Part shown: piece by piece, positions 5,557-63,174 of the stretch
Position numbering within the stretch: position 1 is the first letter of the stretch
How the letters are laid out: every line of letters starts with the position of its first letter
From: Sphyrna mokarran
Taxonomy: Eukaryota
Reading direction: 5' to 3'
Assembly: GCA_024679065.1 (NCBI GenBank)
Contig: JAGIQG010000005.1
Location: 92,256,001-92,320,000 of the forward strand
DNA length: 64,000 bases
Notes under the pieces: generated by a model
The model's input: the letters and a program-made list of their open reading frames with translations, nothing else
Databases searched by the model: none
What the model was told of the DNA's origin: nothing
Program-made: the position numbers and the translations under genes

Positions 5557-5623
5557 CGTCCTGGCACGACTGCCTGTGCGTTCATCATTGTAGCTTATAT
5601 ACAGCACTGTCTTGTTAAGGGAG

Positions 5624-5967
5624 CCATGATGTGGAGATGCTGGCATTGGACTGGGATAAGCACAATAAGAAGTCTCTCTTAAAGATACAAACAATGTAAC
5701 ATTGTAATTGTAACAATATAACAATCTCACACTGTACCTTTAAGACTTGATTACCTGTAAAGACCCGGATTCCAATCATTATTTTGTAGATTGAGTTTGT
5801 GGCTTTATATGCCTTGTTTGTGAACTGAAATCCCACTCACCTGACGAAGGAGCAGTGCTCTGAAAGCGAGTGGTTTTTGCTACCAAATAAACCTGTCAGA
5901 CTTTAACCTGGTGTTGTGAGACGTCTTATTGTGTTTACCCTAGTCCAATGCTGGCATCTCCACATCG
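5624..5967 (+). mobile_element. non-coding Penelope-like (pLTR) insertion with hammerhead motif and inverted ends
   Basis: Direct repeat TTGTTAAGGGAG at 5612-5623 and 5968-5979; ~53 bp inverted ends; hammerhead core at 5841-5865 followed by AATAAA. Confidence 0.85.
5833..5873 (+). ncRNA. minimal hammerhead ribozyme motif, probably inactivated
   Basis: CAC-CTGACGA-A-GGAGC/AGT/GCTCT-GAAA-GC-GA-GTG. The expected U before the cleavage base is G. Confidence 0.7.
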
Positions 5968-10514: not shown

Positions 10515-13500
10515 AAAGGAAAATTACAACACAAGAACAGGCCCTTCAGCCCTCCAAGATTGCACCACCATGCTGCCTGACTAAACTAAAACCCCCTACC
10601 CTGCCGGAGACCATATCCCTCTATTCCCATCCTATTCATGTATAGGTCAAGATGCCCCTTAAAAGTCACTATCATATCTGCTTCCACTATCTTCCCTGGT
10701 AACGAGTTCCTGGCACCCACCACCTTCAGTGTAAAAAACTTACCTCATACATCTTCTTTAAATCTTGTCCCTCATACCTTAAACTTATGCTCCCGAGAAT
10801 TGACTCTTCCACCCTGGGAAAAAGCTTCTGACAATTCACTCTGTCCATGCCCCTCATAATCTTGTAGACTTCTATTGGGTCGCCCCTCAATCTCTGTCAT
10901 TTCAGTGACAACAAACCAAGTTTCTCCAACCTCTCCTCATAGTTAATGCCCTCCACACCAGGCAGCATCCTGATAAATCTTTTCTGTACCCTCTCTAAAG
11001 CCTCCACATTCTTCTGGTAGTGTGGCGTCTAGAGTTGAACAATATCTTCCAAGTGCGGCCTAACCAAGGTTCTATAAAGCTGTAACATGACTTGTCAATT
11101 TTTAAACTCAGTGCCCTAGCCGATGAAGGCAAGCATGCCATATGCCTTCTTGACTATTTTCTCCATCTGCATTGCTACTTTCAGTGACCTGTGTACCTAT
11201 ATACCCAGATCCCTCTGCCTATCAATACTGTTAAGGGTTCTGCCATTTGCTTATATTTCCTAAATGCATTAGACCTTCCAAAATGTATTACTTCACATTT
11301 GTCTGGATTACACTCCATCTGTCATCTCTCCATTCAAGTCTCCAATTTGTCTGTATCCTCTGATGACCCTCATAGCTTTGTGTCATCTGCAAACTTACTT
11401 ATCAAGCCAGTTGCATTTTCTACCAAATCATCTATATATATATTACAAACAACAAAGGTTCCAGCATTGATCCCTGAGGAATGCCATTTGTCACAATCGT
11501 CCATTCAGAAATATACCCTTCCACTGCTACTTTCTGTTTTCTATGACCGAGCCAGTTCTGTATCCACCTTGCTAGCTCACTTCTGATCCCATGCAACTTC
11601 ACTTTCTGCATCAGTCTGCCATGAGGGACCTTGTCAAAGGCCTTACTAAAGTCCATATAAACAACATTCACTGCCCTACTCTCATCAATCATCTTCGAAA
11701 CTTCCTTGAAAATCTTGATCAAATTAGTGACACATGACCTCCCCTTCACAAAACCATGTTGCCTCTCATTAATCAATCCACTTATTTCCAAGTGGAATAA
11801 ATCCTGTCTCAAAGAATACTCTCCAATAATTTCCCTACCACTGACGTAAGGCTCACTGGCCTGTAATTACCTGGATTATTCTTGCTACCCTTCTTAAACA
11901 AAGGAACAACATTGACTATTCTTCAATCCTCACGGACCTTCCCTGTAGCCAGTGGGAATACAAAGGCTTTTCTCAAGGAAACAGGCTATTTCCTCCATTG
12001 CATTTCTTGGGTACATCTCATCAGGCCCAAGGGATTTGTCTACCTTAATGTTTCTCAAGAATCCCAATACTGCCTCCTTTTTGATCTCAACATGACTCAA
12101 ACTGTCTACACACCCTTTTTCAGACTCATCATCCAATAGATCCTTCTCTTTGGTGAATACTGACGTAAAAGTGAATACTCACTTATTACCTTGTCCATTT
12201 GCTCTGGTTCCACGTATAGATCCCCTCCCCTGTCTTTGAGTGGGCCAATCCTCTCCTTGGCTACCCTCTTGTTTTTTATATATATGTATAAAAAGCCTTG
12301 GGGCAGCACATAAGCACGGTGGGGTTAGCATTGCTGCTTCACAGCTCCAGGGAACTGGGTTCGATTCCCACCTTGGGTCACTGCCTGTGTGGAGTTTGCA
12401 CATTCTCCTCATGTCTGTGTGGGGTTCCTCTGGGTGCTCCAGTTTCCTCCCACAATCCAAAGATGTGCGCTTTAGGTTGATTGGTCATTCTAAAAATTGC
12501 CCTTAGTGTCCTGAGATGCATAGATTAGAAGGATTAGTGGGTAAATATATAGGGATATTGGGGTAGGGCCTGGGTGGGATTGTTGTTGGTGCAGATTTGA
12601 TGGGTTAAATGGCCTCTTTCTGAACTGTAGAGTTTCTACGATTTTCCTTAATCCTACAGGCCAATGATTTTTCATGACCCCTTTTAGCCCTCCTTACTCC
12701 TTGCTTAAAATTCTTTCTACTTTACTTGCATTCCACTCTTGCTTCATGTGTTCTCAGCCTCCTAACCTTGACAAATGCTTTCTTCTTCTCTTTGACTAGG
12801 CTTACAATATTGCTCTTTATCCAATGTTCCCAAAACTTGTCATTCTTATCCTTCATTCTTACAGGAATATGATTGTCCTGAATCATATTTACCCTGAATT
12901 CAATTTACCCTTGAAATCCTCCCACATGCCAGATGTTGATTTGCCCTAAAATATCTGTCCCCGGTCTACAATCTTTAGTTCCTGGCTAATATTGTTGCAA
13001 TTAGCTTACCCCCAATTTAGCATCTTCACCTGAGGACTACATTTATTTTTATCCATCAGGACTTCAAACTTACTGAATTGTGGTCACTGTTCCCGAACTG
13101 CTCCCCTACTGGAATGTCGACCATCTGACCAGGCTCATGGCCTAATACCAAGTCCAGTATGACCCCTTCCTAAATTGGACTATTACATACTGTTTTCACA
13201 AAACTCTCCTGGGTGCTCCTTACAAACTCTGCCCCATCCATGCCCCTGACACAAAGTGAGTCCCAGTCAATATAGGGAAAGTGAAAATCCCCCTCCACAA
13301 CAACTGTGTTACTTTTACACATTGCCAAAATCTGCCTACATATCTGTTCCTCTATTTCCCACTGGCTGTTGGGCAGCCTATAGTAAACCCCTAACATTGT
13401 GACTACCCCCTTCCTATTCCTGAACTCTACCCATATTGCCTCACTGTATGAGCCTTCTGAGTGTCTTCCACAGTATAGCTGTGATTCTCCTTAACCAATA

Positions 13501-19548: not shown

Positions 19549-20214
19549 AAAAACTTTTAAAAATTACGTTGGTTGTTATATGTGTATGTACTAGTGTTCA
19601 GATGCGATTGAATTTACAAATAATCTCAGAGTACTTTTACTCATCACACAGTGGCCTGGCAGAAGAAAATGTTGCATATCCCATAAACTGTCTGCAAGAT
19701 TGAGGAACACAATAGAGACTATGCAATAACAAATGGTCTCCAAATTCACCTAACCAACAATTTGACCTTCTAAATACGCTGGACCCTACCTGCAGCTGAA
19801 CACTGTTTCTTGGATGAGTGATCTGCAAATTTATTGAATGGGCCTTTGATGTCCAAATTTGGTAAATCAGCTGGTTGGACTAAATAATGTCAATTTCACA
19901 ATTATCATTACAATTGATGACAATCACTAACAATTGTTCCATCATTACAAGATCCAAGCTGTTGTGTTATCAGTATTCAGAAAAATGATGATAAATCAAA
20001 CTCGGGTAGTTAAAGGATTTACATGGTGAGAAGTGCTACTTGATGTACCCCCAGTATCATTACTGGACCACTGTTGTTTCTAATTTCCCAAAGTTATTTA
20101 GACTCAGAAACTCAAAGGAAAATAGTCAAATAGGCAGGTAGTACCAACCTTTGCAGAAGAAATTAAAGTGGGTTATTTCAATTTGAGAAGGCACTTTAGA
20201 AAATATACAATGAG

Positions 20215-21877
20215 TCAGGCAGGGAGATGTAAATGTAGTTGTGGAGAACACTGGGATACAGGGTTGCAAACTGGAAAATATTGAAGTAGATAAGGAGGAT
20301 GTGCTAGATATTCTTGAGGGTTTGAAGTTAGATAAGTCCCCTGGGCTGGACGGGATTTACCCTAGGATTCTCTGGGAGGCGAGAGAGGAGATTGCAGAGC
20401 CTCTGTCTCTGATCTTCAGGTCGTCGTTGGTTACGGGTATAGTGCCGGAAGACTGGAGGATAGCGAATGTGGTCCCATTGTTCAAGAAGGGGAATAGACA
20501 CTTTCCTGGGAATTATAGACCAGTGAGTCTTACTTCTGTTGTGGGCAAAGTATTGGAAAGAATTATTAGGGATAGGATTTATAGTTATTTAGAGAGAAAT
20601 GAATGATTGGGGATAGTCAGCATGGTTTTGTGAAGGGTAGGTCGTGCCTTACTAATCTTATTGAGTTTTTTGAAAAAGTGACCAAAGAGGTGGATGGGGG
20701 TGAGGCAGTTGATGTGGTATATATGGACTTTAGTAAGGCGTTCGATAAGGTGGCCCATGGAAGGCTTCTGCAGAAAATGCAGAGGTATGGGATTGAGGGT
20801 GATTTAGCTAATTGGATTAGGAATTGGCAAGCAGATAGAAGACAGAGGGTAGTGGTTGACGGAAGATATTCATCGTGGAGTTCGGTTACAAGTGGAATAC
20901 CTCAGGGATCTGTTTTGGGGCCCCTGCTGTTTGTAATTTTTATAAATGATCTGGATGAGGGTATTGAAGGATGGATTAATAAATTTGCGGATGACACCAA
21001 AGTCGGAGGAGTGGTAGATAGTGAAGAGGGGTGTTATAGTTTGCAGAGAGACTTGGACAAGTTGCAGAGCTGGCCGAGAGGTGGCAAATGGAGTTTAATG
21101 TGGAAAAGTGTGAGGTAATTCACTTTGGCAGGAATAACAAATGTGTAGAGTATAGGGCTAATGGTAGGACTCTTAATAGCGTTGAAGAACAGAGGGATCT
21201 TGGTGTATATGTGCATAGATCCCTGAAAGTTGGCAATCAAGTTGGTAAGGTTGTTAAGAAGGCATATGGAGTCTTAGCTTTTATTGGTAGGGGGATTGAA
21301 TTTCGGAGCTGCAACGTCATGTTTCAACTGTACAAAACTCTAGTGCGGCCGCACTTGGAGTATTGTGTACAGTTCTGGTCCCCGCATTATAAGAAAGATG
21401 TGGAGGCATTGGAGAGGGTACAGAGGAGGTTTACCAGATGTTGCCTGGTATGGAAGGCAGGTCTTATGAAGAGAGGCTGAGGGATTTGAGGTTGTTTTCG
21501 TTAGAAAAAAGGTGGCTAAGAGGAGACCTTATTGAAACATTAAGATGATTAGAGGTTTAGATAGGGTGGACAGTGATAGCCTTTTTCCTAGGATGGAGAA
21601 AGCTAGCACGAGGGGACATAGCTTTAAATTAAGGGGTGGTAGTTATAGGACGGATGTCAAAGGTAGGTTCTTTACCCAGAGGGTGGTAAGGGTAAGGAAT
21701 GCCCTGCCTGCTGCAGTTGTAGATGCGCCAAGTTTGGTGGCGTTTAAGAGGTTAGTAGACAAGTTTATGGACGAAAAGGGAATGGTTTAGATTAGAGGGT
21801 CATTTCTTTCTCCTAATTGGTCGGCGCAACATCGAAGGCCAAAGGGCCTGTTCTGCGCTGTAATGGTCTATGTTCTA
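20215..21877 (+). mobile_element. young 5'-truncated CR1 LINE (RT domain, few frameshifts)
   Basis: Consecutive ORFs 20241-21790: [50 protein letters not shown]; tail CTATGTTCTA. Confidence 0.95.
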
Positions 21878-23220: not shown

Positions 23221-24030
23221 GAACATAGGACACAAAACATTACAGCGCAGTACAGGTCCTTCGGCCCTCAATGTTGCGCTAACCAATGGAACCAATCTTA
23301 TGACACTCTAACTTAAACTATTCCAATGCTATCCATATGCCTATCTACTGACCATTTAAACGCCCTTAAACTTGGCAAGTCCACAACTGCTGTAGGCAGG
23401 GCATTCCACGCCCTTACTACCCTCTGAGTAAAGAACCCATCTCGAACATCCGTCCTATAACAACCACCTCTTAATTTAAAGCTATGTCCCCTCATGTTAG
23501 CCATCTCCATCCGAGGAAAAAGGCTCTCACTGTCCATCCTATCTAACCCTCTAATCATCTTATATACCTCAATTATGTCACCTTCTTCTCTCTAATGAAA
23601 ATAACCTCAAGTCGCTTTCCTCATAAGACCTATCCACCATACCAGGCAACATCCTGGTAAACCTCCTCTGCACCCTTTCCAATGCCTCCACATCTTTCTT
23701 ATAATGTGGCAACCAAAACTGTACACAATACTCCAAATGTGGCCGCACCAGGGTTTTGTACAGTTGCAACCTGAAGTCTTGGCTCAGAAACTCAATCCCT
23801 CTACCAATAAAAGCTAACACATAGTATGCCTTCTTAACAACCTTATCAACTTGGGTACCAACTTTCAGGGATCTATCCACAAGTATACCGAGATTTATCT
23901 GCTCATCTACACTACTAAGAGTCCTACCATTAGCCCTATATTCTGTACACATATTACTCTTATCTAAGTGAATCACCTCACACTTTTCTGCATTAAGCTC
24001 CATTTGCCACCTCTCGGCTCAGCTCTGCAG
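23221..24030 (-). mobile_element. CR1 LINE 3' fragment
   Basis: LYKTLVRPHLEYCVQFW..LERVQRRFTRM; RGHSFKL; GAACATAG tail. Confidence 0.93.
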
Positions 24031-38640: not shown

Positions 38641-38930
38641 GACTTGTCTGGGCTTGCAAAATCTCACTTACTGTCCTGTCTGGAAACAATACACATCTCT
38701 TTAACCTATGATTAATGCTATCTCCAATCACATTGTCTATACCTTTAAGATTGAATAGCAGGTTAGCTGTAACAACTTGCATTCTTATCAGTATTCTGTA
38801 AACTTCACATCCTCGTTTGTGATCAGAACTCTCCACTCACCTGATGAAGGGTCAGAGGCCTGAAAGCTAACGGCTTTTGTCACCAAATACACCTACTGGA
38901 CTTTAACCTGGTGTTGTGAGACTTCTTACT
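38641..38930 (+). mobile_element. Penelope-like pLTR fragment nested in the Gypsy remnant
   Basis: Collinear with 5730-5930 (ACCTTTAAGA..CCACTCACCTGA..GACTTTAACCTGGTGTTGTGAGAC). Confidence 0.85.
38833..38873 (+). ncRNA. minimal hammerhead ribozyme motif
   Basis: CAC-CTGATGA-A-GGGTC/AGA/GGCCT-GAAA-GC-TA. Core intact; helix I partner altered (ACGG). Confidence 0.7.
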
Positions 38931-39589: not shown

Positions 39590-40328
39590 AATTGCAGCAG
39601 GAGTACAATATCAAGGGTAGGCGTCTTAGCAGTGTTGAGGAGCAGAAGGATCTTGGGGGTTTGAGTCCATAGGACTTTTAAATCGGTCTTGCAAGTGGAG
39701 CATGTGGTCAAGAAGGTGTATGGTATACTGGACTTCATTAATTGAGGGATTGAGTTTAGGAGTTGGCAGGTAATGCCACAACTTTATAAGACCCTTGTCA
39801 AACCCCACTTGGAGTACTGTGTGCAGTTCTGGTTGCCTCACTATAGGAAAGATGTGGAAGCTATTGAGGGTGCAGAGAAGATTTACAAGGATGTTGCCTG
39901 GATTGGGAGGCATTCCCTATGAAGATAGGCTGAGGACCTAGGTCTCTTCTCCCTGGAGAGATGAAGGTTGAGAGGTGACCTGATAGAGGTTTATAAAATG
40001 TTGAGAGGAATAGATAGGGTGGATTCCTGGAGGCTATTTCCCAGAGCTGAAATAGTCGCTACGAGAGGACACAGGTTCAAAGTGCTGGACAGCAAGTACA
40101 GAGGAGATGTTAGGGGTAAGATTTTCACTCAGAGAGTGGTGAGTGAATGGAATCGGCTGCCATAGTGGTGGTGGAGGCGAACTCGCTGGGGTCTTTTAAA
40201 AGACTTCTGGATGAGTACATGGGATTAAATGGGATTGGGAGTTACAGATCGTTCTATGGTCTAGTAGGTATAGGTATGATTGGTGCAACTTGTGGGCCAA
40301 AGGGCCTGTTTGTGCTGTAATGTTCTAT
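39590..40328 (+). mobile_element. CR1 LINE 3' fragment
   Basis: RGDLIEVYKMLRGIDRVDS..TRGHRFKV (ORF 39968-40165); TGTAATGTTCTAT tail. Confidence 0.92.
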
Positions 40329-44952: not shown

Positions 44953-45079
44953 CTATGATGTAGAGATGCCGGCATTGGACTGGGGTAAACAGCTGACAAA
45001 GAGGACAGCCTCAAAAGCTTGTGAGTTTACTATCAAATAAATAGGTTGGGCTTAAACCTGGTGTTGTCAGACTTCTTAC
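44953..45079 (+). mobile_element. 127 bp Penelope-like insertion (inverted end plus eroded hammerhead)
   Basis: TTGTTTGGG direct repeat at 44944-44952 and 45080-45088; sequence shared with the 5626 and 58341-58477 copies. Confidence 0.8.
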
Positions 45080-46196
45080 TTGTTTGGGGTAGCCAGAAAT
45101 CTTCCCCTAATGAGGTTTCCTTTGGAGAGAAGGGTGAAAAAATGGACAGATCTGGATCCCAGTATGATTTCTGGGCCATTCTGCTGAACCCATGCTGCAG
45201 TTATGAGAGGAGTGCAACAAAGGGTTCAATGATTTTCAGTCATGTTATGCAAATCTTGTGGTTGTTGTCCTTTAAATAATATTCTAAATTTGCCTTTGCC
45301 AATGACTCCTACAGCTCACTTTTTCCGGCAGGTACCATCTCCAATAGCACGTGGAGAATTAAAAATGAAGGCATATAATTTAGCCCCATATCTGAAATCA
45401 CATCTGTGTCACCCATTGATTTCCTCTACAATGGATGGAAAATCCTGTGAATTACAACCGCTGGATTTTGATTTGTGTGACTGAGAATTCATGTCAATAC
45501 TCAAAAAAATCAGACATTACAGAAAATCGGTTTCAGAGAGAGGAGCAGAATTTGCATTTGTCATCTTTATTTTCTTGTAACTGATCCTGAAGGCAGGGAC
45601 GCGTGCTGTGTGATTGTTCCCACGCATGGTATCAGCCTCATGTCACTTCATCCAGGTGCCCATTGCTGAGGTGAATGTCAGCATGGGACATATCCTGTGG
45701 ACCCTCTTAATTGATTCTATCCTTTATGAATACATACTTTTCACAGAGGCCACCAGATCATGCTCCCAAGAGTGAGGACGCTTACATTTCCAGATTTGGA
45801 ACGCTGAGTCTAACTGGAGCAGTTATTGCTGCCAACATTCTGTGGATCAAAGACCAAACCTGGGATCACGGATTCTTATCTTGGTTCTTTACCACTCATT
45901 TCATTTGTCCACTAAAGCTCAAGACTGGGTGGGGGTGGGGGAAGGAGATGTGGGATGTGAGGAACAGAATTGAACTTTTTATTCCACCTTTAAAAGGATG
46001 GCAGAAGCAGAGCCAGTAGAGTTTTCAGAAAAGAAAATATACTTTAAAAGCAAACATTTCCAGGGCTATTAGGAAAGAGCAGGAAAGTGGGATTGATTGA
46101 AAAATTCTTTCGAAGAGCTGGTACAGACACAATGGACAGAATGGACTCTTATGCCAAATGATTGAATGATTTCTATGAGTAACTGAATAATTAAAT

Positions 46197-51122: not shown

Positions 51123-51678
51123 CTAGTGCGGCCGCACTATTTTCTTGTGTACTATATTTTCTTGTGTACAGTTCTGGTCCCCGCATTATAAGAAAGATGT
51201 GGAGGCATTGGAGACGGTACAGAGGAGGTTTACCAGGATGTTGCCTGGTATGGAGGGCAGGTCTTATGAAGAGAGGCTGAGGGATTTGAGGTTGTTTTCG
51301 TTAGAAAGAAGGCAGCTAAGAGGAGACCTTATTGAAACATATAAGATGATTAGAGGTTTAGATAGGGTGGACAGTGATGGCCTTTTTCCTAGGATGGAGA
51401 AAGCTAGCACGAGGGGACATAGCTTTAAATTAAGGGGTGGTGGTTTTAGGACAGATGTCAGAGGTAGGTTCTTTACCCAGAGGGTGGTAAGGGTATGGAA
51501 TGCCCTGCCTGCGTCAGTTGTAGATGCGCCAAGTTTGGTGACGTTTAAGAGGTTAGTAGATAAGTTTATGGATGAAAGGGGAATGGTTTAGGTTAGAGGG
51601 TCACAGCTTGTTCCTAATTGGTCGGCGCAACATCGAAGACCGAAAGGCCTGTTCTGTGCTGTGATGTTCTATGTTCTA
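51123..51678 (+). mobile_element. young CR1 3' fragment, near-identical to 21340-21877
   Basis: ORF 51145-51591 open to the native stop; TGTTCTATGTTCTA tail. Confidence 0.95.
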
Positions 51679-55984: not shown

Positions 55985-56562
55985 AACCTGGCATGATGGT
56001 AATGTCACCGGACTCTTAGCCCAATGGCCCAGCTAATATTCGAGGGGTATATGTTTAAATTCCACCATGGCCATTGGTAGAAATTAAATTCAGTGTGGAA
56101 TTGCTAAGAAGTCTATCAGTGATTGTTGTTTTAAAAAAAAAGCCCCATCTGATTTAAGATTGCGTTTTAGGGAAAGAAATCTGCTCTTCTTACATGGTCT
56201 GAACTACATGTAAATCTAAGTCCACATCCATGTGGTAGACTCTTAACTGCCCTCTAAAATAGCCTGGCAAGCCATTCAGTTCAAGCAATTAAAGATGAAC
56301 AATAAATGCTGGCCTTGCTGATAAAGCTTACACTCCATAGAAAAAAGAAGGAAATACCAGTGATTATGAAACTATAATAAGGTTTATAAAAACATATCTG
56401 GTTCACTAATGTCCTTTGGGAAAGAAATCTGCCCTCCTTATCAGGTCTGGCTGACATGTAACTCTAGTTCCAGAGCAATGTGTTTGACTCTTAACTGCCC
56501 TTAGAAATGGCAAGCTACTCAATTCAAGAGCAAATAGGAGTGGGAAAGAAATGCTGGCCTTT
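55985..56562 (+). mobile_element. second-family SINE followed by a tandem partial copy
   Basis: GGGAAAGAAATCTGC..ACATGTAA..GACTCTTAACTGCCCT occurs twice (~56170 and ~56418). Confidence 0.7.
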
Positions 56563-56817
56563 TAAAATTTAAAGCAATTGACATGATACTATGGGCTGAT
56601 TCTGATGGTAAACAGAACTGGCATGGAACCAAGGAATCCTGCTTTTGCAGGGCCTGTTACTATTTGAGACCTAATGGTATATTTGACTCGTACACTTTCC
56701 CTTCATTGAAACGAGTGCTGGCCGAAACAATAAATAAAATGAAAGTTTTAGTTTCGTAAGTTGTTTGTGACAAACAGATAAATGGCAGATTAATATAATA
56801 ATCTGGTCATAATTGAC

Positions 56818-57115
56818 TAGAATCCCTTGAATGCAGAAGGAGGTCATTTGACCCCTCGAACCTGAACCGACAACAATCCCACCCTTTTCCTGTAACCTCA
56901 TGTATTTACCCTGTACTCCTCCTGACACTAGCATTGTCAATCAACCTGATCTGCACATCTTTAGACTGTGAGGGGAAACTGGAGCTCCGAGGGGAAACCT
57001 GCACAGACATGAAGAGAACATGCAAACTCCACACAGTCACTTGAGGCCTGAATTGAACCCGAGTCTCTGGCACTGTGAGGCAGCAGTGCTAGCCATTGTG
57101 CCACCATGCTGCCCT
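56818..57115 (-). mobile_element. HE1-like SINE
   Basis: Reverse head, core and tail. Confidence 0.88.
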
Positions 57116-58240
57116 TAAGTTATGAAATGCTGAAGATTCAAGCTATTCTTAATATAGAAATAGGCCAACAAAGTCACAAATTTAAGAGATATATGATGAA
57201 TTATGAATCTCTAGAACTTGTTGGCTGAATAATGTCACCCGACTGTTTGCTTTGCTCAAACTCATCTAGCCTTTGGCCTTCTGTTAATGTTAAGAACTTG
57301 TTAAATGACACATTTTTGTCCATTAAACTTGCTACAGGAAGTTGTTTAGCAATTAAAGGCATAGGTACCTTTTTAACAACACGATAATTGTCAGTGCAAC
57401 CAATCAACATCTCTGTCCCAGAAAGGGAAATTTTTAAAGTATGTTTCCCACAAGTAGTAAATTATTTTAATTAAAATTTTTGTAGCTTTTCCTACCTTTC
57501 CTTTCTATCTTTTCTCTCTCCTTCTCTCAGTTCAATCTTTCATTCTCATCTTTACTTTTTTTTCTGTACAAGTTTTGACTCTAAACTCTCGCTTTATCTC
57601 CATCAATCCCCTGTTTCTCCCTCAATCCTTAAATCTCATTGGTTAAGGAGAATTGTTACCTGTTCCATGATTCTGGTTGCCCCTGTTATCAGCTTACACT
57701 CCCAGAAACCTATAGAGAAAAGACCTGCTAACACAAGTGCAGGAAAATATCTAACTAACATGGCATTCTGTAACATTCCTATTCTTAGAATACTGTAATC
57801 TAAAGAGAATTTGCATCCTACAGGCAGAATTTTACCATGATTTGTCAGACTGTCAGGCTCTGACTAAAATTGGCATGCATTTCTCCAAATGCACAGTAAG
57901 TTTACAGACCATAATATCTGGCATTCTGACAAAAGAAACCTGAGAATGTGGTTTACACCATCAGTCTGGGGGTTGGGGCGTGATAGAACCAGCAAGTTCG
58001 GCTCCACAGATATAGAGGTGCCATCTTTAAAGGGCACCCTAATCAGCAAAGAGTTCTAAATTCCTCCAGCAGCCTCATCTGTTCCCCTCACCCCAACAAA
58101 AAGCTATCAGAGGCTCTTCCCCACCTCTTGTCCCCACTCCACCATTGATAGCAACCACTACAGAATATCATTGGTGCTCTCCCCTCAATAAGAAGTCTGA
58201 CAACACCAGTTTAAATGCAACCAATTTATTTGATAGTACC

Positions 58241-58282
58241 CTCGCAAGTTTTCAACTCTATGGCCTTCGTCAGGCGAATGAG
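58241..58282 (-). ncRNA. minimal hammerhead ribozyme motif (minus strand)
   Basis: TTCGC-CTGACGA-AGGCCATAGAGTT-GAAA-AC-TT-GCGAG; helix I (TTCGC/GCGAG) pairs. Confidence 0.65.
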
Positions 58283-58340
58283 ACGTTCTAGTCTCTCTCC
58301 AACAGCACACATACCAGCACAGTGTGAGAGACCAGAACAC

Positions 58341-58382
58341 CTCATTCACCTGATGAAGGCCATAGAGTCGAAAGCTTGCGAG
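58341..58382 (+). ncRNA. minimal hammerhead ribozyme motif (plus strand)
   Basis: TTCAC-CTGATGA-AGGCCATAGAGTC-GAAA-GC-TT-GCGAG; palindromic AAGCTT where helix III would lie. Confidence 0.7.
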
Positions 58383-58999
58383 TTTACTATCAAATAAATC
58401 GGTTGCATTTAAACTGGTGTTGTCAGACTTCTTACTGTGTTTACCCCAGTCCAACGCCAGCATCTCCACATCATGACTGCTCTCCCCTCAATGCTAGGTG
58501 TCCCTCACTGCTGGTATCACCCTTCAATGTCCATTCCCCCCCACGAGTGCAAGTTTCCCCTTACTACCTGATCCCTCCTCACTACCAGCTACCCCCTGTG
58601 ACTGCAAGTTTCCTCCTTACGACCCAATCCTTCCTCACTATCCATTACCCCCTGTGACTGCAAGGTCTGTCTTTGAATTGCCGCATTCCTGTCACTTCCA
58701 AGTCCCCCCTTCAAAGATCTCAGCGATCCCTCCACCCACCAAACATAACGGGAAACTCACCCCTCCAAATGGGCTCCCAAGCTTTGCTGGGACAGTGCTA
58801 ACCTGTGCCTGAGAGCAGTGCCAACCTGTGCTGGGGCAGTGCCAATCTGTGTGGGCACGCTCCTCTCCCCCCACGGGCTATACTTTGCACCCCTGGGAGG
58901 ATGGAGGGGAATTTCCTTGACCGATTCATGCCTCCATATATCTGTTATCACCTTTGCCGACATGACGTCACATTTCTGAAGCATGAATATTAAGTAATT

Positions 59000-59023
59000 G
59001 GGGGGGGGGGGGGGGGGGGGGGG
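59000..59023 (+). repeat. poly-G run (24 nt)
   Basis: Seen directly; a G14 run lies at 6127-6140. Confidence 0.9.
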
Positions 59024-59052
59024 TCATTTGGCGAGGGCTCGTTCATAATATT

Positions 59053-59215
59053 CATAGAATCGTAGAATACCTACAGTGCAGAAAGAGACTTTTTAGCCCA
59101 TCAAGCCTGGACTCAGGCCCACTCCCATAAGTGCACTTATTTACTCTGCTAAGCTCCTTGATACTAAGGGTCAAATTAGCATGGCCAATCAACCTAACCT
59201 ACACATCTTTGGACA
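59053..59215 (-). mobile_element. HE1-like SINE 3' half
   Basis: CATAGAATCGTAGAAT tail; TTAGCATGGCCAATCAACCTAACC. Confidence 0.8.
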
Positions 59216-59929
59216 ATATTAAAATTTATTTGTATCTATTACAATTAGCTCCTTACTCCTGGTGGGTGGGAATATTGGTGAAGAGTGTGGAAAATCGGGA
59301 AATGCGTTCGACCTTTGCCAACGAGAATTGCATTTTCCAATTCTCACAGGATTTTGCATCTGCATTGCTATTCTTACTAGTAACTAACACGGGCTCAAAA
59401 TTCCACCCAAAGTATATCTTTCTTCCTCAGATATTTAGTTGAACTTCTATGTATTTCCATGTATTTTACAAGGACATGGAGAGGGGGTAGTTTTCCTATC
59501 ACACCCACCATGGGAATGGTAGCCGGGGCCGGGGTGGTTGTGGGCAGACCATGCAAAGGTCCCTTCATCTCATGTGGGACTTTCCAGTTTTGTGGCAAGA
59601 CCGGCCAAAAAATACCTGCCAAGATCTCTGCATAGGATGAGACCATGAGGCACATTGAGTCTGCTCAACAATTCAGAAAGATAATAGTGAACGTTTATTC
59701 TCCAGCCTGAGCCCCATGTCCCTTGATTCCCCTAATATCAGATTTGAATATACAGGACTGAGCAACCATAGTCATCCAAAGAACAGCATTCGAAAGATTC
59801 ATTCAGCTGGCATTCATTTCAATGAAGGAAAGGTGGAAGAGTCAAAAATACCCTCTTTCTATCCTCCTCAGTGCTTAAATTCCCATTTAAATTTGGATCA
59901 TCGGCAAACTTGAATAAATCACAATTGGG

Positions 59930-60750
59930 ACCATTGTTTGACGCCTGTCTTCGGGTGCAAAAACGTGGTAAAGTTGGATGTGAGGCCGTTACCGTGATCC
60001 GCGCTGGCGTCCACACAGATTGCCACTTTATTGCAACCCGGGAATGACAGTGATTCAATTTGCTCCCAAAACGGGCACAACGGCAATTTACATGTATTTG
60101 CATGCATTTAAATTAAATTAATGAACTGCCCACCCAACTTTATCAGCATTTCCCCATTTACTATCCCATTTGCCAATCCAGAACTGTGCCGTAATGGACC
60201 TGCTAAATAAAAGTCTAAATTGGACGCAGTAGCTGCTGAAGAGCACGTTCAGAGCTTCCAATAGCTCTCTGACTCAGATCAGTGGTGTGGGGGAAGGAGG
60301 GAGCCGGGTCAAATCATTCTCTGGAGGGGGGGAGGGAGAGTGAGGCCAGATCGTTGTCTGGTTGGGGATGGAAAGAGGAAGAGATGGGGCTGATGTATCT
60401 CAAAAGGTGGTAAGGGGGAGGGCTGATCATTGTTTGGTGGGGAGGGAGGAGGAGGCGGATCAGATGTTCCTCTGGGGGCTGGGGTGAGTGAGGCCAGGCC
60501 ATTCTCAGAGACGGGGTGGGGAGATGAGTGAGGCCAGATTGTTGTCTGGGGGAGGGGTGTGTGAGTGAGGCCAGACCATTCCCTGGGGTTCCAGAGGGGG
60601 ACTGAGGCCAGGTCGTTGTTTGGGGGAGGGGAGAGGAGGGAGTTCCGATGGCTCACTGATGCGGGTGGGGCAGATGGGAGTCCATTAATGGGGAGGTCAG
60701 ATGTATCTCTGATTGGGGGGGCAGGGATGGGAGTCTTTTTTTCAGCAAGT
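59930..60750 (-). mobile_element. Harbinger subterminal fragment with internal G-rich tandem repeats
   Basis: GCATGCATTTAAATTAAATTAATGAACTG resembles the reverse complement of 32454-32483; GAGTGAGGCCAGA units recur over 60337-60612. Confidence 0.65.
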
Positions 60751-61305: not shown

Positions 61306-61347
61306 ATCAAAGTTTGCCTGCCCGGTTTGAATTTGAACCTAGCTGGA

Positions 61348-62303
61348 CAGTTAACTGTTCCATGCTGCATTTTCAATGGCAATGTGCCTCCACCGATCAG
61401 AGTCCACTCAGTCTGCATTCTCTTCTCATGTAATATCTTTTTGTTAGTTTTTTTTTGTGAGCTGTCTCAGTGAGTGCAAGACAAAAAGCTTTGATAGCAT
61501 GTCTCTTTTTCTCATCCATACCCAAGTGACAATTTTATAAAATATTATCCATCTCTAACTGCCCTTGAACTGAGTAGCTTGCTGGGCCATTTCAGAAAAT
61601 ACATTGCTAATGCCCACATCCTACCAATGAATTTTTAAAAATATTTTCTCGGATTTGCCAATGCATTGCAAATTTATCTAAGTTTTTCCCTCTATTAGAA
61701 ACTGCTTTCATGAAGGGCATTAACTCTTTTATTTCACATTCTTGCTTCTATTTCTATTGGTGTTAATGTTCCTTTCTAGTTTCTGTAGTTGGAATCTTAT
61801 CAACCTTCATGTCAGTGGGATGTTCCCATCCTGCTGCAGTGAACGGAGATTTGGCTGGCTGCCAAATCCTCTAATTTCACTGCAGTGGAAGCGTGGCGCA
61901 CACCGCCAGTAAAATCATGGCCAGTGTCTTTTCTTAATTTGTTTGAAATCTCTTCTGTCTTTGTTGGAGTTACCATTTTCATTTCTCATGCTATCCTTCT
62001 TATTTTAAGTGTGCCTTTTCATCCTCCCTTCACTTGGTTGAGTGATTTTGCTCTCTAACTTAGTCGGAATTACTCTTCCCTCCAGTTCTTTGTTTTTTAA
62101 AAATAATTTTAGGAATGTAAGTGTTCCTGGCAATGGCAGCAATCCCTAATTGTCCTTGAAAAGAAATATGCTATCAAAGCTTTTTGTCTTGCACTCACTG
62201 ATGTAGCTCACAAAAAAACGAACAATTGATATGGCATGAGAAGAGAATGCTGATTGAGTGGAGGCACATTGCCATTGAGAATGCAGCACAGAACAGTTAA
62301 CTG
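61348..62303. repeat. inverted repeat pair (61348-61508 and 62159-62303), probably Penelope-type ends
   Basis: 34 nt perfect inverted match at 61467-61500 / 62168-62201, plus flanking similarity. Confidence 0.8.
61788..61922. mobile_element. hairpin-forming MITE
   Basis: CTGCAGTGAA..GAGATTTGGC-TGGCT-GCCAAATCCTC..TTCACTGCAG; ends GGAATCTTA and TAAAATCATGGCC. Confidence 0.6.
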
Positions 62304-63174
62304 ACCATATCTCTGTGGGTGTGCATGAAGTACACAGACATCAGTGGTTCCTCCAGGGAACGACTTCTGTCTGTGTACTGCACACACACCCACAGAGCTA
62401 TCTTCCTGTAGCAGCTAGCTCAGCCATTTCAGAGGTCAGTTAAAAATCAACCATTTTGTTATGAGTTTAAATTCACATGTGGACCAGAACGGCTAAGGAC
62501 TGTAGATTCACCAAGAGCCTAACAATCTGGTAGTTTCCGGTAGTTATTAGACATAAATTTTATTCCAATTTTATTCATTACTGTCACTCTGCTGATAAGT
62601 GACATTTGAACTAATTGACTTCAGAATTTGAGCTGAGGCCTTGGATTTTACTAGGTCAGCAATATTATCACTAAACTCCATTCTCTCTATGTCTCATCTT
62701 GGTGACCCTATCCCTACCATTTAACTCTATTGGGTTCCTCTCTGTCTTTAACTAATTTTTGTTGGAATAACTCCTCTTTCTAATATCTTTGCCAGAGTGA
62801 TTCTTCTCTCTCTGGTATTTACCTCTACCTTTTATCTTTGTTGGAGTGACTCCTTTCTCTATCTCACCCTTGTTGTATTAATCCTCTTTCTGTCTTCACT
62901 TTGCCAAACTGACTCCCCTCTTTACCTCTTTTCATTGCTGGTGCATCACCTTTTCCTTCCTGGAGAAAGTTATTGCCTCCTCTTTTCCCAAATCCCACAT
63001 CTGTCTTGTACCATTGGGTGTACGACCCTTCAATTCGGCATCTCTCTGTATCTCTCATCTCTCTTCCTACATTTTCAATCATTCTCTATATTTGCTTAAT
63101 ATGTTGTCTGCCTCCACTTCTCATGTATGGTGGAAGAAGCATTAACAAAGATTGGTAAGCAGACTATCATTTTT

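Follow-up and report, generated by a model that had tools for sequence, protein, structure and literature searches.

Within the window (the whole 64-kb stretch of DNA analysed here), a 288-nt insert lies between perfect 15-bp direct repeats (15 of 15 positions identical). It contains two 108-nt arms, inverted copies of each other that differ at exactly 10 positions and are separated by a 28-nt spacer (Table 1). The hairpin folds at -174 kcal/mol (z = -21.3), a stability reached by none of 100 shuffled sequences, and each arm holds a hammerhead core followed by AATAAA. This geometry (repeats, arms, mismatches, spacer, two hammerhead motifs and AATAAA) had been described in the original prediction and is reproduced in full, whereas the palindrome AAGCTT that it reported exists in the plus arm only, the minus arm reading AAACTT, which is not self-complementary. 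The plus motif comprises CUGAUGA, an extra A, a 3-bp helix II, GAAA and the palindromic AAGCUU, with one A-C mismatch in helix I; from the sequence, its cleavage is predicted after position 58377.

Table 1. Features of the hairpin insertion, with their positions in the window.
Feature	Position	Strand	Basis or remark
Left TSD copy, 15 bp	58175..58189	no strand	repeat and two empty-site contigs
Insert, 288 nt	58190..58477
Inverted tail-less pLTR (element 3' end)	58190..58322	-	116 of 133 aligned nt identical to L048; 108-bp arm plus 25 unpaired nt that make up most of the loop
Left arm, 108 nt	58190..58297
AATAAA, mirror copy	58225..58230	-
Degenerate minimal type-I hammerhead motif	58241..58278	-	core (58273-58250) intact; helix II closed by G-U instead of G-C; palindrome of helix III broken
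Spacer between arms, 28 nt	58298..58325
Locus-specific inversion junction	58323..58325	no strand	3 nt in neither copy; within a short CACA-G-TGTG palindrome
Sense pLTR copy (right arm, 108 nt), truncated on its 5' side at about 200 nt past the stop codon of the endonuclease	58326..58433	+
Minimal type-I hammerhead motif	58345..58382	+	core 58350-58373; sequence, family alignment, covariation, folding
AATAAA, conserved pLTR word of the family; putative poly(A) signal	58393..58398	+
PLE tail, 44 nt, one side only	58434..58477	+
Right TSD copy, 15 bp	58478..58492	no strand

The arms derive from the 3' end of a Penelope-like element (PLE). Extending the element upstream across 29 further copies reached the C-terminus of a GIY-YIG endonuclease, and a copy of the same subfamily as the locus (L048) gives a GIY-YIG Pfam match above the cut-off (E 8.2e-5), the arm starting about 200 nt 3' of its endonuclease stop codon. 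The arms are 87-93% identical to this copy, the sense arm together with its tail matching it at 139 of 150 nt. Alignment to L048 also indicates that the loop is not a separate part, as 25 of its 28 nt extend the inverted element copy; the tail is carried by the sense side alone. A protein search of the genome gave 55,197 first-look candidates. In a sister subfamily, L094 encodes a 915-aa ORF with RVT_1 (E 2.6e-9) and GIY-YIG (E 4.4e-4, below the Pfam cut-off), and full-length ORFs were found only in this younger subfamily, whose pLTR is 76-79% identical to the locus arm. Of the four long copies, all from this younger subfamily, two (L095 and L097) are themselves paired head to head, with a size of 2.6-2.7 kb and 99% identity, and so repeat the layout on a larger scale. 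Copies L094-L097 carry CHSNLCKTC (CX4CxxC) immediately upstream of the GIY-YIG region; a CX2-5CxxC motif in the RT-EN linker has been tied to Neptune and Nematis (PMC8557442), and by this linker motif the element would be of Neptune/Nematis type.

The locus thus presents all four features of an EN+ PLE insertion: a parent with a reverse transcriptase plus a GIY-YIG domain at the C-terminus, an inverted 5'-truncated copy, a one-sided tail and a TSD. Both the Penelope-like origin and the inverted 5' pLTR segment proposed in the original prediction are borne out, the former by L048 (GIY-YIG) and L094 (RT and GIY-YIG), the latter by the left copy. The young sister subfamily, with open frames of 817-915 aa in L094 (2360-5104, plus strand), L095 and L097, may have been recently active. 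Named protein relatives of the ORF are mostly from sharks, and pieces of it occur inside annotated shark isoforms (NOXP20-like, cytochrome P450, septin 5a, XRCC5, PPP1R12A-like, USP8), which represent either exonisation or annotation artefacts.

An inverted pLTR, a one-sided tail and a TSD together form a published PLE layout (PMC3846280, PMC8557442), and the hairpin is an ordinary inverted-pLTR PLE scar of this kind. As in Adineta vaga Pen2a and the EN+ PLE scheme (PMC3846280, PMC8557442 Fig. 2), the inverted 5'-truncated copy lies at the 5' end; a 30-40-nt tail on one end, a short TSD and a junction palindrome are likewise common to the scheme and the locus (PMC3846280, PMC8557442). Unlike the A. 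vaga elements described in PMC3846280, the locus has no ORF left, both its copies being only about 135-150 nt long, and its tail of 44 nt and TSD of 15 bp (family median 13) compare with a 31-nt tail and 8-10-bp TSDs there.

Three more insertions of related PLE subfamilies are found in the window. One (5622-5966) has tails on both ends and a flanking repeat of about 11-12 bp, and comes from a subfamily whose helix II differs; a mirror-image stub (44955-45085), flanked by a repeat of about 10 bp, has its inverted tail on the left and the arm without a tail on the right; and a lone tail-less pLTR end (38811-38930) shows a third helix II variant. The window also holds another inverted-repeat pair (61344-61509 and 62159-62307), a short palindrome of a repeat (62307-62401) and, in the right flank of the locus, short degenerate tandem repeats (a 55-nt pair at 58554-58664 and three 16-nt copies at 58793-58852). 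Translations of 20214-21480, 23578-24018, 51127-51591 and 11432-11866 resemble what we take to be CR1/L2-type LINE reverse transcriptase. In a search for host genes, no Pfam match was obtained among 113 unmasked frames of at least 50 aa between window positions 40000 and 64000.

According to the original prediction, recurrence of the same loop would make the hairpin a mobile non-autonomous element. In favor of a MITE- or retrozyme-like unit of 288 bp copied as a whole, the full layout does recur with a TSD proper to each locus: a search with the 288-nt query yielded 3757 first-look candidates, and all 40 that were scored match nearly the full length of the query. The junction, in contrast, does not: a 31-nt pattern spanning it, searched with a tolerance of 2 mismatches, matched once in the 2.77-Gb genome, at the locus itself. 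Among the 40 scored candidates we retained 28 distinct look-alike loci, this one included (30 fetched, 2 duplicates removed), a set chosen by similarity to the query. Their inner junctions are distinct in all 28 cases and their outer ends are fixed in all 28: measured from the arm end, inverted copies terminate at -1 to +11 nt and sense copies at +38 to +43 nt. Direct repeats of at least 10 bp (median 13) flank 26 of the 28. Arm lengths, moreover, range from about 10 to 900 nt in an even genome sample (described below). The genome search with loop and arm junctions that had been proposed therefore recovers the layout, each time with its own TSDs, but not the junction, and we consider propagation of the hairpin as a unit barely credible. 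Non-LTR retrozymes (bioRxiv 10.64898/2026.07.22.740005) are, like the locus, short, non-coding, hammerhead-bearing and PLE-derived, but they are described as head-to-tail tandems, whereas the locus is a single pair arranged head to head, its junction private and nothing pointing to mobility as a unit; no tandem copy or head-to-tail monomer was found near the locus (56000-60500).

The two arms of a locus share variants beyond what shuffling produces (56 within loci versus 21 under shuffled pairing, with a maximum of 38 in 5000 shuffles), and thus come from one source. Ongoing conversion between arms is unsupported, as only 3 of the 56 shared variants are private to a single locus.

An empty orthologous site, which the original prediction had suggested looking for, was seen in two sequencing runs from two studies (X10 and X13). 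The left flank (58062-58192) aligns to one contig in each, the alignment ending at 58189 with 15 differences in 128 nt, and both contigs continue into sequence that matches the right flank, starting at 58493 (for X10, about 23 of 28 letters agree by eye). Since each holds a single copy of the 15-mer at the empty site, the 15-mer is a true TSD. The flanks are 88% identical in these relatives without the insertion. The contigs are short (533 and 812 nt) and likely orthologous to the locus; assuming this orthology, the insertion postdates the divergence from the X10 and X13 organisms. The left flank had no match in runs X2 and X3, and searching X1, X2, X4 and X7 with 57500-58900 gave no bridging contig, matches being swamped by family copies; X1 may be the source of the window itself. 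A flank search for paralogous empty sites within the same genome returned, beyond the locus, only the element itself.

An Rfam scan of 57000-59500 (E<=10) detected no hammerhead and 5 weak unrelated matches. The motif was scored instead by descriptor and by covariation, using 60 sequences: 58 sampled copies and both arms, with one tandem duplicate excluded and 7 of 66 matches lacking an alignable core. In helices I and II, 79.9% of cells are paired, versus 72.1% after shuffling and 27-46% when the alignment is slid; double-change cells number 70 versus 26.7 in shuffles, although relatedness of the copies inflates such cell counts, and the number of covarying pairs alone is not above shuffles (142/500). 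These values point to a minimal hammerhead with covarying helices I and II at the family level. The dimer-type minimal hammerhead of the original prediction thus stands for the family, and the hammerhead search that it called for came out negative with Rfam and positive by covariation.

The motif matches metazoan PLE hammerheads as described in PMC4209133 in its CUGANGA and GAAA core, the extra nucleotide between 9 and 10.1, the G10.1-C11.1 pair, the palindromic 15.2-16.2 and the short helix I. It differs in helix II, which has 3-5 bp in the shark family and 7-8 bp in Schistosoma, and both copies at the locus carry decay mutations; sharks are not mentioned in the results and discussion of that paper. 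Minimal hammerheads on opposite strands, 100-700 bp apart, have been reported there as well (PMC4209133, Cervera and de la Pena 2014).

At the locus itself the ribozymes appear impaired. The plus copy keeps all core bases with one helix I mismatch, and the minus copy has the G-U closing pair and has lost its palindrome. In folding of the isolated arms, the pairing probability of helix II does not exceed 0.01. Because the arms face outward, the antisense arm is transcribed first in either direction, and all simulated transcript prefixes show the core already paired as it emerges; imposing helices I and II on the fold costs about 64 kcal/mol (-110 instead of -174 kcal/mol). Both hammerheads are accordingly predicted by the folding models to be locked in the full hairpin. 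For comparison, single minimal motifs have been reported not to cleave and dimers to cleave at a low level (PMC4209133), and for PAc, a Poseidon element of Anolis carolinensis, cleavage is reported only with protein (PMC11167929).

These results bear on a possible co-option of the locus as a regulatory RNA, be it a self-inhibited ribozyme, a two-way cleavage/poly(A) cassette or a hairpin source of small RNAs. Its very stable fold (-174 kcal/mol), the intact plus core and the AATAAA on both strands would suit such a role. Yet the order of transcription, the core pairing in all simulated prefixes and the energetic cost of the ribozyme fold run against it and leave the bidirectional cassette of the original prediction unsupported, and the palindrome needed for dimers is lost in the minus copy. 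Arm divergence is 9% here and 7% in the median look-alike locus, and 4 of the 10 arm differences fall on family CpG sites, as expected under neutral decay and without a sign of extra conservation. The insertion is missing in relatives whose flanks are 88% identical, and tens of thousands of similar short pairs are expected in the genome (see below). We therefore hold co-option to be highly unlikely; "self-inhibited ribozyme" remains apt as a physical description, with no sign of selection or of a regulatory role. Of 59 genomic copies, just 8 satisfy a strict descriptor, which locates selection in the source elements, and the hammerheads at the locus would be pLTR passengers, selected in those sources and decaying here. 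The locus is thus very probably a single, heavily 5'-truncated EN+ PLE insertion in which the element's end is present twice between 15-bp TSDs, as a sense copy with the tail and an inverted copy without it. Since both hammerhead motifs carry mutations and the hairpin is predicted to sequester them, the insertion is likely inert.

To place this insertion among its relatives, we used an even sample of 130 evenly spaced 10-kb stretches (1.3 Mb), searched with a profile, pairs being defined as pLTR ends at most 4 kb apart. The sample contains 107 pLTR ends and 32 head-to-head pairs, from which we estimate some 68,000 pairs genome-wide (Poisson range 47,000-96,000); a flanking repeat of at least 9 bp was read by eye in 19 of the 32, so this figure is possibly high, and some sampled pairs may be two separate insertions. 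In 23 of the 32, at most 400 bp separate the arm ends, which extrapolates to about 49,000 comparable short pairs genome-wide. One tail was found in 27 pairs and two in 3, with 2 undecided and none lacking both, tail-less pairs being harder to detect. An apparent bias of tail strand relative to the assembly (23 versus 5 in the first 700 kb, L104-L173) shrank to 15 versus 12 in the next 600 kb (L174-L233) and was dismissed as chance.

How such pairs form can be addressed through the extents of their arms, which we compared by a uniform rule over the 27 one-tail pairs of the even sample. In 20 of these the arms stop within 30 nt of each other in element coordinates, versus 9.2 expected (rho 0.62), and the arm that reaches further is the tail-less one in 17 pairs and the tailed one in 4 (p 0.007), the other 6 being ties. 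Of two similarity-selected sets, one shows the coupling again (7 of 14 versus 1.9 expected) and the other does not show it clearly (2 of 9 versus 0.7); the direction bias is absent from both (8 versus 5, and 3 versus 4). Arms that end at nearly the same element position suggest that both nicks prime on one RNA. In such an insertion, the GIY-YIG domain would nick each strand of the target, the two cuts lying about 13-15 nt from one another, and each target 3' end would prime reverse transcription, one starting at a far site that includes the tail and the other at a near site about 40 nt upstream that excludes it. Both reverse transcriptions would stop after about 135-150 nt, and the two antisense cDNAs would join at a short palindrome, the gaps being filled.

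The same element, and the same verdict on the locus, would follow if one cDNA had snapped back and copied itself, the endonuclease resolving the hairpin at the tail boundary. Self-priming with EN-mediated resolution has been proposed in PMC3846280 and PMC8557442, and it fits the short palindrome at the junction as well as the near-perfect palindromes formed by many pairs, including some whose arms measure 1 kb (1077/1078 and 1013/1016 nt); with endonuclease resolution it would likewise yield near-symmetric arms. A fold-back from a tailed cDNA, however, cannot add upstream element sequence to the tail-less arm, which here reaches about 25 nt further, as it does in 17 of the 21 untied pairs, though a deletion at the centre of the hairpin could blur this argument. 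Against fold-back also stands the in vitro activity of the Anolis protein, which cleaves and elongates both strands and begins RT at two sites that delimit the tail (PMC11167929). We thus favor two primings on one RNA for this PLE family and regard fold-back as a less probable, if still serious, explanation.

The Anolis element, Poseidon PAc (PMC11167929, Frangieh et al. 2024), resembles the shark element in having two fixed ends about 40 nt apart that set the tail and in that both strands can be primed. It differs in that Poseidon lacks the CX4CxxC linker (Neptune/Nematis type) of the shark element, and the shark hammerhead's location, about 200 nt after the ORF stop, is a further difference from PAc (PMC11167929). 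PAc start sites in vitro show no strand difference, whereas one of each is seen in 27 of the 32 shark genomic pairs (PMC11167929 for PAc). A search of the titles and abstract beginnings of openly accessible literature found, among the papers listed, no one-RNA, two-nick model for PLE inversions. In LINE-1 twin priming, both target nicks prime reverse transcription and produce a 5' inversion with a TSD; the L1 inversion segments copy non-overlapping parts of the RNA, whereas at the locus one and the same stretch of 108 nt is present in both copies, each made from its own fixed start point.

As a more specific and tentative proposal, which we think may well prove wrong, a dimer of the PLE protein would prime both nicks on ONE RNA, with the leading reverse transcriptase starting at the near site and the trailing one at the far site. 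Such an ordered two-headed insertion would explain the single tail (27/32), the shared stop point (20/27) and the further reach of the tail-less arm (17 versus 4).

The locus itself is of little weight, being one among an estimated 47,000-96,000 similar insertions. In this genome, hairpins that carry two hammerheads are common debris, which can be told apart from real mobile units by the junction test. The class as a whole may be of importance: the formation of inverted PLE structures has been called an open question (PMC8557442), and this genome provides a very large natural collection whose clear end rules can discriminate two-nick priming from fold-back. If true, ordered two-headed insertion would make the origin of PLE inversions testable from a single genome.
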